From a virus (lineage: Duplodnaviria; Caudoviricetes), in the IMG/VR virus record IMGVR_UViG_3300031998_000008, positions 64,001 to 128,000 of that record: DNA of 64,000 bases; one strand, written 5' to 3'. Below the pieces are notes generated by a model. It searched no databases, was not told the DNA's origin, and worked only from the letters and a program-made list of their open reading frames with translations. How positions within the stretch are numbered: position 1 is the first letter of the stretch; every line of letters starts with the position of its first letter. This document shows, one piece after another, positions 303 to 50,047 of the stretch. Position numbers and translations under genes: made by a program.

Positions 303-3179
303 TTACATTCTACCCATTGAGTTAACATCGGCTCTTCTTGTGCCATAGTTGTTATATCCTGTTTGCTCTATAATCTTATCAGTTAATTGTCTTACAAAGT
401 TTTGGTCTGAAAGCAATCCATCAGTTATGTCAACTTCCTGTCCATTTCCGCCAACCAATGTTATAGTTCCACTTATATTAATATCATATGCGCCTCTTCC
501 GTGATTATTTGTTCCTCCAAGTGGATTTGCCCTTTCAGCAACATTAACTGCTCTTCCAATTTCTGGAATTCCTGTAATTTTACCGATTTTTTCTGCACTT
601 CCTTTAATTAAAGAACCAGTCAATTCCATTGTTTTTTGAGTCATCTTTAATGGATTTAAGAAATCAAGACCTGAAAATCCACCACTTCCACCAAATTCAC
701 CATTAAAGTATGCATTTTTAACTGTGAATGTACCCTTTGCAATATTGGTTCCATTCTTTTCTTTTTCTTCCTTTTTCTTGTCAATAGCGGCCAAAATATC
801 CCAATCACCTTTCTTTTCGAGTTTTCTTCTCATTCTGTCTGAGATTTCACCGCTATCCAATGCCTTGTTGATGAGTTTATATGAACGAGCACCATAATCA
901 CCTTTTCTTTGGATACCCATTCTTTCAAGTTTTTCATCAACACGCATTTCACGTTTTACTTTTGCCATTTTAACAGCCCCAACAACAGCACCTCCAACAG
1001 CACCAACTGCTGTACCAATAGCAGTACCAATTCCTGGGAATGCACTACCAATCATAGCACCAAGTGCAGCACCTTCTAATGCAGTTGAGCCTATTTTCAT
1101 TGCTGTATGTGCGGTTCCACCTTTTTTGATTTTACCGCTATCAACTAACATGTCAGTTGCTATATTACCTGCTGCACCAACGATACCTGCAACACCACCT
1201 TTAGCAACACCTGCTGCCATCTTTGTACCTATCTTTGCTGCTGTTTTTGCTGCAATTCTCTTTCCTCCTTGTTTAGCAACACTAGACATACCATGCTTTA
1301 TTGCCTGTTTTTCAGCATGTCTTGAAACAGCACCACCTAATTTTGTATAACCTTTACTTGTTAATTTTGCCCCTATTTGGTCAACTCTTGTTATTGAACT
1401 TGCGCCAAATCTTCCTGCTTGCTGTCCTAATTGAGACTCACCAAATCTTGTTGCAAGTCTTCCACCGTATTTACTTCCACCACGTTTAACAGCAGTTTTT
1501 CCACCTTGTTCAGCACTACTGGTTAACAAGCTTTTACCACCATTAGACATACTATTTGCCGCATTAACACCTCTCCCTGTTAATCCACCACCACGGCTAA
1601 ACATACCTTTAATACCACGAACAGTATCAATAATTTGCATAGGTATGCTCATTAGCCCAAGAGCCATGCTCCCAATACTCTTTGCAAAACTACCTAATGC
1701 AATTATGGTTAATAACGTATTACTACGTCCAATTGCTTTATGTATGTCTTTTACTGTATCTCCAGTTCCACTTTTTTCAATAAGTCGTGCTTTATTTGCC
1801 TCATATTGCTTTTTAGTACCTTCTTCTACATCATAAAGACTTCTTAATGTTCTTGCAATATCTTTAATATCAGCTGCTTGGTCTTGTGTTTCTTTAATTA
1901 AATCCTTATAGTCTTTATTCTCTATTTCATCAAGAGTCTTAAATTGGCCATTTATAGAAATACCAGCCCTTCCTTCTTTATCAAATGTTGCTGAATTCTT
2001 AATTAATTCTTGTAAGTCTTTATTTAACCCACGTGCATTTGCTGATGAATTAATTTGTCTTGTAATTTCTTCACGTTTTTCATTTGCTGTAACACTCTCC
2101 ATTAATTGAGAGTAATCCATTCCCATTGCTTGTGCAGCAGCTTTAATACGTTGCTTGTTGAATGCAGAAACTTCAACTTCACCAGTTTGCTTATTGAATC
2201 TTCCAAGCCCACCAACCATCTTTATTACTCTGTCAGTTAAGCCTTCCATATCCATAAGGCCCTCTGATAACATTCCCAATGGGTCAGCAATAGAAGCAAA
2301 TTGTCCACCTAAAACTTGTAATTTTGATGCCACATCAATTGAGCCTTCAATTGTACTTACCTTATCAGCAAAAGATGCAACTTGAGCCATGTCAAGTTTT
2401 ATTGCTGTTGCTTTCTTTGCCATGCTTTCAAGGCCCTTTAACCCATTCTTAAATGTATAGTTTTGTGCTATCCTAATGTTTTTAGCAACATTATCTGAGT
2501 ATTTTTCAAATGATAATCCGTGCTTTGATGCTTCAGCAAACATTTTGCCTGCATGGTCGGCAGTGCCATTTAAACTAACACCAAAATTTTCAAATGCAAC
2601 AGCAAGTTCAGTACTTTTATCACCCATTACTGCTGTCATTGCAGCCAAACTTTCCTGTTGTGCGTTGTCAATTCTTAAACCTCTTCCAACACCTTGAACA
2701 TATTGTTGTTGGGCTTTTAAAAGTTCATCTGTTGAAATATTATAATTTATTCCAATTTTACCATTTACAACATTGTCTATTGTGTTTTTTCTAAGGCGCT
2801 TCATGCCTTCTTCTGTCATAGCCAATGTCTTAGCGTATTTAGATGCTGCTTCATCTGCCTTTGCCCATGGTTCTAACATATGGTTTAATTCACCATACAT
2901 TCCCTTTAGCGTATTTACTGTTTGGTTAAGAGCACCATTTATACCTTTAACAACTGCAAAAGCCTTACCAACCCCATTTGCAAATTTTCCCCATTTACCT
3001 GAAGCACCTGTAGAACTGCCACCACCAAATCCACTATCTCCGCCATCTCCCCCTGAATTATTTGATTGGTTGTTTCCACCAGAACTTGGCGTATTTTCTC
3101 CACCCATCAAATTAATAATTTTATCAAGTTGGTCGGCTACTTCGTTTTGGAATCCATTATAATCGTATCTATTTGCCAT
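303..3179 (-). CDS. tail tape measure protein
   Basis: 958 aa Ala/Lys/Gly-rich helical protein with Gly-rich hydrophobic segments (GAALGAMIGSAFPGIGTAIG); downstream of chaperone-like pair; late motif upstream. Confidence 0.75.
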   Translation of the reverse strand: MANRYDYNGFQNEVADQLDKIINLMGGENTPSSGGNNQSNNSGGDGGDSGFGGGSSTGASGKWGKFANGVGKAFAVVKGINGALNQTVNTLKGMYGELNHMLEPWAKADEAASKYAKTLAMTEEGMKRLRKNTIDNVVNGKIGINYNISTDELLKAQQQYVQGVGRGLRIDNAQQESLAAMTAVMGDKSTELAVAFENFGVSLNGTADHAGKMFAEASKHGLSFEKYSDNVAKNIRIAQNYTFKNGLKGLESMAKKATAIKLDMAQVASFADKVSTIEGSIDVASKLQVLGGQFASIADPLGMLSEGLMDMEGLTDRVIKMVGGLGRFNKQTGEVEVSAFNKQRIKAAAQAMGMDYSQLMESVTANEKREEITRQINSSANARGLNKDLQELIKNSATFDKEGRAGISINGQFKTLDEIENKDYKDLIKETQDQAADIKDIARTLRSLYDVEEGTKKQYEANKARLIEKSGTGDTVKDIHKAIGRSNTLLTIIALGSFAKSIGSMALGLMSIPMQIIDTVRGIKGMFSRGGGLTGRGVNAANSMSNGGKSLLTSSAEQGGKTAVKRGGSKYGGRLATRFGESQLGQQAGRFGASSITRVDQIGAKLTSKGYTKLGGAVSRHAEKQAIKHGMSSVAKQGGKRIAAKTAAKIGTKMAAGVAKGGVAGIVGAAGNIATDMLVDSGKIKKGGTAHTAMKIGSTALEGAALGAMIGSAFPGIGTAIGTAVGAVGGAVVGAVKMAKVKREMRVDEKLERMGIQRKGDYGARSYKLINKALDSGEISDRMRRKLEKKGDWDILAAIDKKKEEKEKNGTNIAKGTFTVKNAYFNGEFGGSGGFSGLDFLNPLKMTQKTMELTGSLIKGSAEKIGKITGIPEIGRAVNVAERANPLGGTNNHGRGAYDINISGTITLVGGNGQEVDITDGLLSDQNFVRQLTDKIIEQTGYNNYGTRRADVNSMGRM

Positions 3180-42126: not shown

Positions 42127-43017
42127 ATGGCAAAAAGAGGAAGAAAACCAAAGGAAAGAAAAGGCTATTTTTATGATACAGAAGAGGCCGCTATAGTACA
42201 ATATATTAACGAAGACAACATATTAGAAAAAAACAAGATATTCAACACGATTCTATATCCTGCTTTGACAAAGATGATAGAATCCATAATCAGGAGATAC
42301 AAATTGTTTGTTCCTGATGAAGAGTTTGAACAGAATTTTAGTGATACAATATCATATTTGCTAACAAAAATTAACCATTTTAAGCCTGAAATTTATTGTT
42401 ATGACCCGTATAGTGGAGATACAGAAAACATTGAATTGGTTGAAGTTAGTGAAAGTGAATACAGAGAAAAGGTAAAATGTGCCGAAGAAACTGACCCTGA
42501 GTTCATTCATGTTGATTTTGAGGATGATGAAGAAAAGAATGGTAATTTCAAAAAGACACTTCACAAATATAAAGCATATTCTTATTGTGGTACGGTTTGT
42601 AGAAACTACCTAATGTATAAATGTTCTCAATACACAAAGAAAAAACTTAGAAATTCGTCATATGAAGATGTCTATGAGGATATTAATAATGATGAAAGAT
42701 TTTCAACATATGATGACAGTTTTGCAACCCATGCAGAGAATTTAATTAAAAATGTTTCTTCTGAAATAGAAAAAACAATTGAGGAAAGAGATTTGAATTC
42801 TTTAACTGATGATGAGGTTAAGGTTGGAAAGTCTCTTATAAATCTTTTGAGAAACTGGGAAGATGTTTTACCGAATGAGGGAAGCAAAAAATTACAGAAA
42901 TCTTCAATACTATATTATTTGAGGGAAGATACCATGATGACCACAAAGGCATTGAGGGATAACATGAAGAAATACAAGTGTATGTATCAATTCCTTAAAA
43001 AGAAAGAACTTGAATAG
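42127..43017 (+). CDS. phage late-transcription sigma factor (T4 gp55-like)
   Basis: KMIESIIRRY..ISYLLTKINHFKPE..KAYSYCGTVCRNYL resembles gp55/sigma region 2. Confidence 0.7.
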   Translation: MAKRGRKPKERKGYFYDTEEAAIVQYINEDNILEKNKIFNTILYPALTKMIESIIRRYKLFVPDEEFEQNFSDTISYLLTKINHFKPEIYCYDPYSGDTENIELVEVSESEYREKVKCAEETDPEFIHVDFEDDEEKNGNFKKTLHKYKAYSYCGTVCRNYLMYKCSQYTKKKLRNSSYEDVYEDINNDERFSTYDDSFATHAENLIKNVSSEIEKTIEERDLNSLTDDEVKVGKSLINLLRNWEDVLPNEGSKKLQKSSILYYLREDTMMTTKALRDNMKKYKCMYQFLKKKELE

Positions 43018-47656: not shown

Positions 47657-47659
47657 AAG

Positions 47660-47687
47660 AAAAGGCCGCTTTAAAACGGCCTTTTTT
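47660..47687. terminator. bidirectional terminator
   Basis: AAAAGGCCG-loop-CGGCCTTTTTT. Confidence 0.8.
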
Positions 47688-47688
47688 G

Positions 47689-49341
47689 TTATTCATAACG
47701 TTCAGTAACATCACTTACTATTTCAAACGATAACACATTTTCAAAGAATCGTGTTTCCCTACCATCACTTACCTTAATATCTATGTGATATTTGTGTGGT
47801 ATGAAGTCTTGTGTGTGTATTTTGAAGAAGTTATTCAAAAACCCCTTTTCTATCTTTGTATATGGGATAATTTCAATTTGTCTTGGGCCATCATATACAT
47901 ATATTCTGTATTCACAGCTTGAAATAAGCATTCTTTTGTCTGTTGAGTACTTTTCTCTAAAATCAACAACAACTTCACGTTCTTGGCCACGTTTAAGCCT
48001 TTCGTTGTCATTAATTCCGTATAAAGAAGGAACTAATGAGTTCTTTGAATATGAGTTTTCACCAATCATTAGTTTGTTTGATAATGGCTTTGTTGAAAAT
48101 TCCAATTCAACGTCATCGTTTTTAACGCCATTTAAAGCGATTTTAGACCATTTATCATAATAGATAGCACCAACTTCCATTTCAGATGTTAAATTGCCTA
48201 CAGAGGCACGATAAACGCCTTTTGTGACCTGTTTAACGTTAACTTCACTTCCGTTTATAGTGCATTTTGGGGTTTTGTCAAGGTTTGTTGGTGTTCCGTC
48301 ATCAAAAACATACAAATATAGGTTATTGTTTTTTCCGAGTGTGAATGATTCTCTATCATCCATGATATATTCGTCATAATTTGCTTCGATATACGGGTGG
48401 AAGAATGTATTTGTGTTATCAGTGAAGAATCCAACATAAAATTCTTGAATATAAGAACCTATTTTCTCTGTTTCTGGAACAAATGCAAGGCATAATCCGT
48501 AATTGTCAATGCATTTCTTCTCATAATCTTCAAGAGTTTCATCCATTTCGTCACGTAATTCATCCATGACATATTTTGTTATGTCAATTGAAAGGTTTTC
48601 ACTTCCGAAATCGAAATGTTGTGTGCCTATAATGATTGATTCTTCACCATTCAAATATTTTTCATATTCTTCTGCCAATGTTTCATTTGAATACACACCG
48701 CCATGTAATGCTTCGTTGTTTAATGAATATGAATCGGCCATTTCAATAAGGTCTTTCTTTGCCTTTTCCCAATCTTTATCATCTGAATAGTCGCTTGCTA
48801 TATTGTATATTTCCTGTGATATTTCATCTGACCTTTTTCTGTCATAATATCTTTTCTTTCTGATATTCAATGGTTTTGTATCAAGGTTAAATTTATCTTT
48901 TTCATATTTCCATGGGATAAATTTTTTTGAGAAGTACCAGTTTGAGCCATCTTCTGCATATGCAAGCCTGTTTTGGATGTAGAAATCGTTTTTATAGTCG
49001 AATCCACGTCCTGCATCAAAATCCATTGGCAATTTGAATAGCATTAAATCAAATGAAGATGCTCTTTCAAATTCAAAATCAGGTGAGATGTGTATTGGCT
49101 TGTCGTATGGAACTGTGTCAACTGAAAAACAATTTGTCATCTTGAGCGTGAAAGTTAATTTACTTGGGTCGGCAAACGTTTTGTCGTTTATCAAGTTTTT
49201 AATCTCTGAAATGTCAAAATGAAGCAAACCTCTCATCAAAAATTGTCCATACCCAACACCTAAAATTGGATTTAAACCCAAATTTTGGAGTGAATTTTCC
49301 AATATTGTATTAGTTTTGTCTAAGAAAAAATGTCTAATCAT
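47689..49341 (-). CDS. putative virion structural protein (DNRLRE-like beta domain)
   Basis: N.G..., R.LL.FD, IDIT..V, NYG..L, P.IE..Y pattern; late motif. Confidence 0.55.
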   Translation of the reverse strand: MIRHFFLDKTNTILENSLQNLGLNPILGVGYGQFLMRGLLHFDISEIKNLINDKTFADPSKLTFTLKMTNCFSVDTVPYDKPIHISPDFEFERASSFDLMLFKLPMDFDAGRGFDYKNDFYIQNRLAYAEDGSNWYFSKKFIPWKYEKDKFNLDTKPLNIRKKRYYDRKRSDEISQEIYNIASDYSDDKDWEKAKKDLIEMADSYSLNNEALHGGVYSNETLAEEYEKYLNGEESIIIGTQHFDFGSENLSIDITKYVMDELRDEMDETLEDYEKKCIDNYGLCLAFVPETEKIGSYIQEFYVGFFTDNTNTFFHPYIEANYDEYIMDDRESFTLGKNNNLYLYVFDDGTPTNLDKTPKCTINGSEVNVKQVTKGVYRASVGNLTSEMEVGAIYYDKWSKIALNGVKNDDVELEFSTKPLSNKLMIGENSYSKNSLVPSLYGINDNERLKRGQEREVVVDFREKYSTDKRMLISSCEYRIYVYDGPRQIEIIPYTKIEKGFLNNFFKIHTQDFIPHKYHIDIKVSDGRETRFFENVLSFEIVSDVTERYE

Positions 49342-49361
49342 TTCAGTAATATTTCTTTATG

Positions 49362-49369
49362 ATAAATAG
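49362..49369 (-). promoter_or_regulatory. putative late promoter CTATTTAT
   Basis: Octamer upstream of 49341. Confidence 0.7.
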
Positions 49370-49423
49370 TACAAATGGACGAATATTTTTTCTTCAAAAA
49401 TTGGTAAAATAAGTATAGAAAGA

Positions 49424-49431
49424 CTATTTAT
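49424..49431 (+). promoter_or_regulatory. putative late promoter CTATTTAT driving a non-coding transcript
   Basis: Octamer followed by structured non-coding segment. Confidence 0.6.
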
Positions 49432-49437
49432 AGTAAA

Positions 49438-49549
49438 AGAAGATTGGGAAATATGTTAATGGATTGAAATACTGGCACTGCCCAAATCTCCTATGGAGGT
49501 CACAAGGTTAGCCATAAAAGGAGCCCATGCGCAGGACTCCTATTTTTTT
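49438..49549 (+). ncRNA. candidate ~110-nt structured small RNA
   Basis: GC-richer island between late motif and AGGAG/CTCCT hairpin + T7; three stems; only 4-codon and ~23-codon ATG frames. Confidence 0.55.
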
Positions 49550-49600
49550 CCACGGATTTGACTTTTTTTTAAAAAATATTATATTTTTTAAAAACTAAAA

Positions 49601-50047
49601 ATGAAGAAGATAAAAAGCGAATCCAAATTTCAAGACGAAAGTTTCAAAATTAAGATAGGGACCATGGATAAAAAGAATCCAGAGGTCATTTATATTGAAT
49701 TGGGGTCATACATATCTCCAATTGAAGAAAAGAAATCATACAAGCCTAATATTTCAAACATAGAAAGGGAAACAAAGTCGGTTGTTAGTGCGATTCTTCA
49801 AGAAAGCGGGTTATGTAAGAGTGATTTCATTTTTGTTTCCGATATAGCAGATGAACGAATTGCAAAGGATAAAAAATCATACTTGGAAATGCAATTGTTT
49901 GTCAAACCGTTAGATTCCGTCAGGGAATCCGGAAAGTTCTCAGAACTTAGCGAAAAATTCAATGAAGAGTGCGTTTCAAAGATAGTTCCATGTGTAAAAC
50001 AATACATTACAGAGAATGGCTTTGAATACTATAAATCAAGAAAGTAA
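49601..50047 (+). CDS. hypothetical protein
   Basis: 148 aa ORF with own early-type promoter candidate. Confidence 0.7.
   Translation: MKKIKSESKFQDESFKIKIGTMDKKNPEVIYIELGSYISPIEEKKSYKPNISNIERETKSVVSAILQESGLCKSDFIFVSDIADERIAKDKKSYLEMQLFVKPLDSVRESGKFSELSEKFNEECVSKIVPCVKQYITENGFEYYKSRK

Follow-up and report, generated by a model that had tools for sequence, protein, structure and literature searches.

The window analyzed here is a stretch of 64,000 nucleotides (G000:C1:64001-128000) from an uncultivated-virus record of 207,929 bp with a GC content of 33%. The record is estimated to be 56% complete, and its relatives reach 300-390 kb. The genome encodes a tail sheath, a portal, a large terminase and a family-B DNA polymerase, and is therefore that of a contractile-tailed jumbo phage. 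The locus of interest lies within a 259-nt spacer with divergent genes for proteins of 550 and 148 amino acids on either side. Neither these two proteins nor their neighbours of 129, 322 and 331 aa could be assigned to an informative family in Pfam or PHROGs. AlphaFold produced a confident model of the 148-aa protein (pLDDT 93). A Foldseek search of the PDB with this model returned nothing at E <=0.001 and no RNA-binding or other clear fold match; the best same-sized matches were ~145-aa chains of the YbjN/AmyR family, with TM scores of 0.41-0.46.

The 148-aa gene has a promoter of its own, as the earlier note on this DNA had proposed for the next gene, and this promoter is kept in all of the loci studied, those without the RNA included. 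It can also be read as TTTG-N19-TATATTTT, which we take to fit the Bacteroidetes -33/-7 promoter consensus. The phage genes here lack Shine-Dalgarno sequences, and one homologue of the RNA (L093) is found on a contig that was binned into a Bacteroidales MAG. On the basis of these features a host in the Bacteroidales appears likely. The features of the spacer are summarized in Table 1.

Table 1. Features of the RNA locus and its flanks (positions refer to the window unless a locus is named)
Feature	Position	Strand	Remarks
550-aa gene	47689-49341	-	ATG at 49341
Promoter motif CTATTTAT of the 550-aa gene (divergent)	49362-49369	-	20 nt between motif and ATG
Phage promoter motif CTATTTAT, RNA gene	49424-49431	+	extended form ACTATTTATAG
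Conserved 5' tail AGAUUGGGAAAUAUGUUA	49441-49458	+	AGAUUGGGAAAUAUGUUG; shows the strongest conservation in the family (alignments A3 and A5)
Variable AU-rich segment	49459-49472	+	weak hairpin A, or alternative UGUUR/YRRCR pairing to the P2 5' strand
Irregular hairpin P2-P2a-P3	49473-49514	+	covariation
P2	49473-76/49511-14	+	compensatory changes in 4/4 pairs
P2a	49480-82/49506-08	+	G.U pair in 20/22
3x5 asymmetric internal loop	49483-85/49501-05	+	CAA vs CACAA
P3	49486-91/49495-500	+	loop UAU; 5/6 pairs compensated, 97% paired
Intrinsic terminator	49519-49549	+	stem 49519-25/49534-41, then A + U7 (49543-49549)
Separate promoter of the 148-aa gene	49557-49587	+	TTGACT-N16-TATATT at 49558-49585; outside the RNA
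148-aa gene	49601-50047	+	ATG at 49601
phoH-carrying loci	L056:2463-3400, L057:2532-3420, L064:2504-3420, L070:2533-3430	-

The CTATTTAT motif is a genuine signal in this phage. The exact 8-mer occurs at 47 sites in the 208-kb record and 38 of these are non-coding, although only ~10% of the record is non-coding DNA. For thirty-one sites, a gene on the same strand starts no more than 40 nt after the motif, typically at 14-23 nt. When one mismatch is allowed, the 10-mer form of the motif is found 21 times in the window, against an expectation of 6.9. The motif precedes the genes for the sheath, the large terminase and the head-tail adaptor as well as the portal operon, and the copy in front of the 550-aa gene is retained across all related loci. 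Just two intergenic sites are followed by a terminator and no gene: the site at 49424 and a site upstream of a phoH-like gene. The RNA is probably made late, a reading that we adopt solely because CTATTTAT is otherwise found before virion genes. As a candidate for a gp55-like late sigma factor, the protein encoded at 42127-43017 had no match in Pfam and none in a sequence search of the PDB, and PHROGs gave only a marginal match of unknown function; the sigma reading is thus unsupported by these sequence methods. An imperfect inverted repeat of 23 nt with 78% complementarity is made up of the two CTATTTAT promoters, which diverge, together with the bases transcribed first from each (49348-49370 and 49423-49445), and the two transcripts would therefore have similar initial sequences, TAAAGAAATATT and TAAAAGAAGATT.

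From the motif-to-ATG spacings of 14-23 nt at other CTATTTAT promoters, we infer a start at ~49435-49441 for a transcript of ~106-112 nt that would end at 49543-49549. This agrees with the earlier note, which had described a GC-richer segment of ~110 nt at this place: the GC content of the RNA segment is 43%, compared with 33% for the genome. The sequence strings on which that note had built its three stems are all present, with CTATTTAT at 49424-49431, AGATTGGG at 49441-48 and CCCAAATCT at 49481-89, followed by TATGG (49492-96), CCATA (49512-16), AGGAG (49519-23), CTCCT (49537-41) and A + T7 (49542-49549). Its statement that the RNA is neither a tRNA nor a member of a family that it recognised also holds. 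ARAGORN finds no tRNA or tmRNA in the window, and a search of the whole window with Rfam 15 gave nothing at the gathering score; the local matches (E >=2.5) are at chance level and far below threshold.

Homologues of the RNA were collected by three routes: with the 550-aa protein as a handle among viral contigs, through an alignment of the relatives of this protein in metagenome contigs, and by DNA-pattern scans of viral and genome contigs. Copies of the element were recovered with nhmmer and with the covariance model R1. This gave 23 distinct homologues, all of them on related jumbo-phage contigs and with one copy per genome. In the pattern scan of viral contigs, L031 was the only true copy not seen before, and it hardly differs from L005; the other matches were five records that the protein scan had already given and five chance matches, and the scan of genome contigs gave one true copy, on the Bacteroidales-MAG contig, and nine chance matches. 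A single relative was found when viral contigs were queried with the 148-aa protein; blastn searches of annotated phage genomes with the spacer and with its 2.8-kb neighbourhood produced no match. CTATTTAT sits 4-10 nt before AGATT in 23/23 homologues, and a GC-rich hairpin with a U-run closes the element in every one. In distant relatives the RNA is still alignable while the rest of the spacer is not. All ORF-less RNA loci that were included in a quick, midpoint-rooted tree of the 550-aa protein group in one 22-row clade (aLRT 96). This RNA-bearing clade spans ~50% identity in the 550-aa protein, and hence the RNA has been retained over a long divergence.

The genes around the cassette vary, with at least five arrangements. 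In the window and in most loci it lies between the 550-aa and 148-aa genes. An extra 600-aa gene separates it from the 550-aa gene in L004 and L033; in L040 its neighbours are a 240-aa gene on one side and, on the other, a 133-aa gene with a separate CTATTTAT; it follows a 207-aa gene in L039 and is placed beside a rearranged 128-aa gene in L041. The 600-aa genes (L004:1157-2959 and L033:1494-3299) are inserts present in some close relatives, so the spacer is a hotspot of gene gain and loss. The RNA cassette is gained or lost as a unit: in the RNA-less loci L010, L011, L016 and L017 the RNA promoter is gone too, while the 148-aa gene and its own promoter are kept. No copy of the RNA exists in two complete related genomes (361 and 393 kb). 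Given this absence and the variety of gene contexts, the element is best described as an autonomous accessory RNA gene, with a promoter and an intrinsic terminator of its own that are kept together and independently of its neighbours. What the comparison shows is that these RNAs form a family with a defined fold and strand, occur once per genome and do not depend on a particular neighbouring gene.

The fold was assessed in two alignments, a structure-blind MAFFT alignment (A3) and a covariance-model-based alignment (A5). In A3, 86.2% of the cells are paired and 13 of 19 pairs show compensatory changes, whereas slid controls are 29-55% paired; the covariation score is 0.400, against a shuffle mean of 0.218, and none of 500 shuffles matches it. 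A5 gave much the same picture, with 87.4% of cells paired (33-55% in slid controls), compensation in 15 of 24 pairs and a score of 0.364 against a shuffle mean of 0.203, again matched by 0/500 shuffles. P2 takes the forms UGGC/GCCA, GCGGC/GCCGC, GCAAC/GUUGC, ACGGC/GCCGU, UGAC/GUCA and AUGGA/UCCAU, and the closing pair of P3 is A-U, G-C or U-A. All six pairs of the terminator stem show compensatory changes in A5. The bases of the internal loop and P2a are nearly invariant, while the helices that flank them covary. The minimum-free-energy fold of the core alone has the P2-P2a-P3 architecture in 20/22 sequences. With the 5' tail removed the architecture appears in 22 of 23 folds; in the 23rd (L041) the cut took away one strand of P2. 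The functional strand is the plus strand, since the G.U pair of P2a and the U.G pair of P3, the latter present in 17/22, would be A.C mismatches on the other strand. Folding of the single sequence was no better than that of dinucleotide shuffles (z -0.70 on the plus strand and -0.52 on the minus strand), and nothing can therefore be concluded from the window copy alone. Overall, we consider it highly probable that this is a genuine structured RNA gene under selection. The earlier note had named a lack of structural conservation as one of two results that would speak against its proposal; the homologue search and the covariation reveal such conservation.

The fold that emerges differs from that of the note, of whose three stems only the terminator is conserved. 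The stem that it had drawn at the 3' end is this terminator, now with covariation. Its second stem, TATGG/CCATA, was rejected because just 53% of cells are paired across 22 homologues and because it overlaps with P2 and P3. The first stem, AGATTGGG/CCCAAATCT, is compatible with 85% of cells and essentially uncompensated, and it clashes with the covarying P2a and P3. Since its 5' strand is nearly invariant, almost no compensation could be visible; in L060 and L040 the stem is weakened and P3 is kept. The inner pairing of this stem, UGUUA/UGGCA, is of more interest. It uses the 5' strand of P2, is compatible in 85% of the sequences and is a suggestive alternative only.

The 5' tail of ~18 nt is probably single-stranded. 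In the AU-rich segment that follows, and which L041 lacks, 81% of cells are paired for hairpin A, none of whose pairs shows compensation. For the alternative helix 49454-58/49473-77 the figure is 85%, and there is one switch from A-U to G-C. The 5' strand of P2 is always Y-R-R-C-R, with no strand flips, unlike P3. These patterns are only suggestive of an alternative or co-transcriptional UGUUR/YRRCR pairing that may mask part of the tail. Tertiary covariation such as a pseudoknot was not detected. A candidate anti-terminator, in which the 5' arm of P3 pairs with the 5' arm of the terminator, is equalled by 141 of 500 shuffles. Inspection of the homologues revealed no conserved ORF in the RNA segment: of the micro-ORFs considered, that from the ATG at 49453 reads MLMD-stop and that from the ATG at 49493 has 22 codons, and neither length, frame nor presence is conserved. 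The RNA has no tandem repeats, its direct repeats being short chance pairs only. An RNA anti-CRISPR would mimic the CRISPR repeat of the host in sequence and structure; the sole word that might resemble such a repeat (AUUGAAAU/C) varies in position among the homologues and is not kept across the family. The several gene contexts, the persistence of the 148-aa promoter in RNA-less loci and the lack of an anti-terminator, repeats or an ORF argue for a free-standing RNA gene, and against a leader, a riboswitch, a type III antitoxin or a micro-protein.

A variant of the element is associated with phoH. In L056, L057, L064 and L070 the spacer contains, in this order, CTATTTAT, AGTTGAAGGAAT, a perfect hairpin, a PhoH-family gene (243-250 aa; PF02562, E 5e-42), a 3' domain and a terminator. 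Starting at the phoH stop codon, the 3' domain reads GCN-(Y)AA-P3-CAnAA-RGY-UAUGUAUUNG, with the terminator after it. Model R1 has its best or near-best match at this domain in all four loci, with 25.1, 16.8, 16.7 and 10.9 bits; half of the model finds no counterpart there. For the 5' leader of the variant (tail and hairpin), homology to the RNA is only suggestive. In this clade the hairpin domain apparently lies in the 3' UTR of phoH, and the RNA is therefore not stand-alone everywhere. The central claim of the earlier note, a stand-alone structured RNA with its own promoter and terminator, is supported by the 23 homologues, which keep the motif, the compensated fold and the terminator. The phoH-carrying loci fall outside the 22-row ORF-less clade in the quick, midpoint-rooted tree. 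It is possible that the small RNA was born from the untranslated regions of a phoH unit, or else that phoH was inserted into an RNA gene. The present genome has its phoH elsewhere, at G000:47692-48369. Near it, outside the window (G000:C1 ~48505-48606, minus strand; L078 ~2310-2410, minus strand), is a second orphan motif, ACTATTTAT, followed by two hairpins and a GC-rich hairpin with U6. The distance from this unit to the downstream ATG of the phoH-like gene is ~35 nt, and no further promoter is evident there; the unit might be either a leader that attenuates phoH or another late small RNA.

We propose that the phage-specific CTATTTAT promoter would start a transcript of ~106-112 nt near 49435-49441 late in infection, that the intrinsic terminator would end it at 49543-49549, and that the RNA would act in trans as a riboregulator with its 5' tail as the interaction surface. 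The base-pairing partner of the tail would be a transcript of the host or, with lower probability, of the phage; the irregular hairpin would be a protein-binding or stabilising module, and the alternative UGUUR/YRRCR pairing could transiently mask the tail. The late timing and the action in trans are what we infer, and taken as a whole, an autonomous late small RNA that acts in trans through its tail has in our view an even chance of being correct. Several observations count against parts of this mechanism. When the tail was compared with the translation-initiation regions of this phage, the best interaction (-12.5 kcal/mol) was no better than those of 30 shuffled tails (-11.4 to -16.7 kcal/mol). 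The invariant bases of the internal loop point to recognition by a protein or ligand rather than to base-pairing, the layout of the phoH variant fits cis-acting mRNA modules at least as well as it fits a tail that serves as a seed, and the single-sequence folding energy is unremarkable. A pairing of the tail with codons 7-10 of the 148-aa gene, noticed by eye, is broken by a synonymous change in L005 and was discarded. The 'gene starts' of the target scan included GC-rich, tRNA-like stretches at G000:C1 ~170000-200000, outside the window, which suggests a tRNA cluster there.

Other explanations place the function elsewhere. The hairpin, with its invariant CAA/CACAA loop and G.U-closed P2a, could be the recognition site of a host or phage protein, with the RNA serving as a sponge, decoy or scaffold that would titrate or deliver this protein late; the partner might be a PhoH-type ATPase of the phage itself, or else an RNA-binding defence or RNase component. 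Such a role would fit the near-invariance of the loop and P2a amid covarying helices, the retention of the hairpin domain alone downstream of phoH in a separate clade, the second promoter-hairpin-terminator unit directly upstream of phoH in this genome and the lack of a base-pairing target in the translation-initiation regions of the phage. However, the strongly conserved 5' tail would be left unexplained, the link to phoH is positional only, and the confident model of the adjacent 148-aa protein (pLDDT 93) has no RNA-binding or other clear fold match; on balance this role is somewhat unlikely. We regard as unlikely the further view that the element is a cis-acting attenuator, riboswitch or insulator leader, in which transcription from CTATTTAT is stopped or conditionally passed at the terminator before the 148-aa gene. 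The order of promoter, structured leader, terminator and gene would suit it, in most loci the gene that follows is the 148-aa gene, and the unit that precedes phoH, whose ATG has no other promoter in front of it, resembles a leader and terminator. Yet the 148-aa gene has its own conserved promoter that persists where the cassette is absent, the neighbours in L040 and L039 differ from those in the window and the next gene in L040 has its own CTATTTAT, no anti-terminator covaries (141/500 shuffles equal the candidate), no riboswitch family matches in Rfam, and the hairpin domain and terminator do not overlap.

The phoH loci also raise the question of origin. The cassette could be a functionless by-product, the collapsed 5' and 3' UTRs of a late phoH unit whose ORF moved or was lost. 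Versions that contain phoH, have a possibly related leader and share the 3' hairpin and terminator do exist, they fall outside the ORF-less clade in the quick midpoint-rooted tree, and phoH is located elsewhere in this genome. But compensatory substitutions and retention across lineages at ~50% protein identity indicate purifying selection on an ORF-less RNA, which argues against a relic, and promoter and terminator are intact in 23/23 copies; moreover, an origin from UTRs explains the source of the RNA and not an absence of function. We find this very unlikely. A compact conserved fold with invariant unpaired bases that matches none of the known classes in Rfam might also bring to mind an orphan aptamer or a new ribozyme of the self-cleaving kind. 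Against this, the RNA folds into no more than a bulged hairpin, no pseudoknot-type tertiary covariation was detected, and metabolic or transporter genes are not associated with it; a catalytic or ligand-binding class is very unlikely as well. A more ambitious synthesis, which we hold to be quite improbable, would place the RNA in a new class of late riboregulators or decoys of Bacteroidales jumbo phages, derived from the UTRs of a phoH unit, with its hairpin recognised by a PhoH-type RNA-dependent ATPase or by a host RNA-targeting defence or RNase factor; the phoH genes of phages, long unexplained, would thereby gain an RNA partner.

As an autonomous small RNA, the element can be compared with the trans-acting sRNAs of phages and prophages that have their own promoter and intrinsic terminator, such as DicF, IsrK and the Pas sRNAs (PMC12197685): like them it is a non-coding phage accessory gene of ~100 nt with its own promoter, a structured body, a Rho-independent terminator and a conserved, probably single-stranded 5' region. 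It differs in that it matches none of them by sequence or model (Rfam), in its location in the structural region of a lytic-type jumbo phage and in its phage-specific promoter motif of the type found at virion genes. A further difference from those sRNAs is that we know of no Hfq-type chaperones in the Bacteroidales, the probable host group. The family may be one of the 8,495 unnamed candidate structured RNAs without functional annotation that were reported from IMG/VR intergenic regions (the DNAVirus_X set, PMC10690425); these too are covarying intergenic motifs from uncultivated phage contigs, and many of the set have a terminator. The phoH clade, with its hairpin domain and terminator after the phoH stop codon, recalls small RNAs derived from 3' UTRs and suggests an evolutionary link between mRNA UTRs and the free small RNA, although the RNA of the window has its own promoter and no ORF. 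Unlike the antitoxin RNAs of type III toxin-antitoxin systems (ToxI-like), which consist of tandem direct repeats upstream of a toxin gene, it contains no tandem repeats; unlike a terminator-type riboswitch or attenuator, it has a downstream gene that varies and has its own promoter, and no covarying anti-terminator. In the lambda PR'-tR' '6S' RNA and similar late leaders, an efficient promoter-proximal terminator ~110-200 nt further on gives rise to a short RNA. The element resembles these in its late-type promoter and in a terminator within that distance. Unlike PR'-tR', however, the cassette is missing from some relatives and turns up in varying gene contexts; the gene after it is served by a separate host-type promoter, and structural selection acts on the body of the RNA. 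The packaging RNA of phi29-like podophages is 120-174 nt long and binds the connector through intermolecular loop-loop pairing; the present phage is of a different type, a contractile-tail jumbo phage with a sheath gene, and the Rfam search gave no match.

The RNA gene matches no catalogued family (Rfam 15) and no sRNA of the review cited above (PMC12197685). The family offers a compact RNA of ~105 nt with a fold backed by covariation and a clear promoter and terminator; the complete RNA-less relatives are natural knock-outs, and the loci with phoH in the cassette are a natural variant. To our knowledge, small RNAs of lytic phages have rarely been characterised, and none in Bacteroidales jumbo phages. 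There are few cultured models of these phages, and the family could provide a tractable entry point to late-stage RNA-based control or counter-defence in this group. It also bears on the birth of small RNAs from the untranslated regions of mRNAs. Should the positional link to phoH prove functional, it would also be relevant to the question of what the phoH genes of phages are for.

At the far end of the 550-aa gene, where it converges with the 331-aa gene, there is an 11-bp GC-rich hairpin (47658-47687) with A/T runs on both sides, a probable bidirectional terminator.
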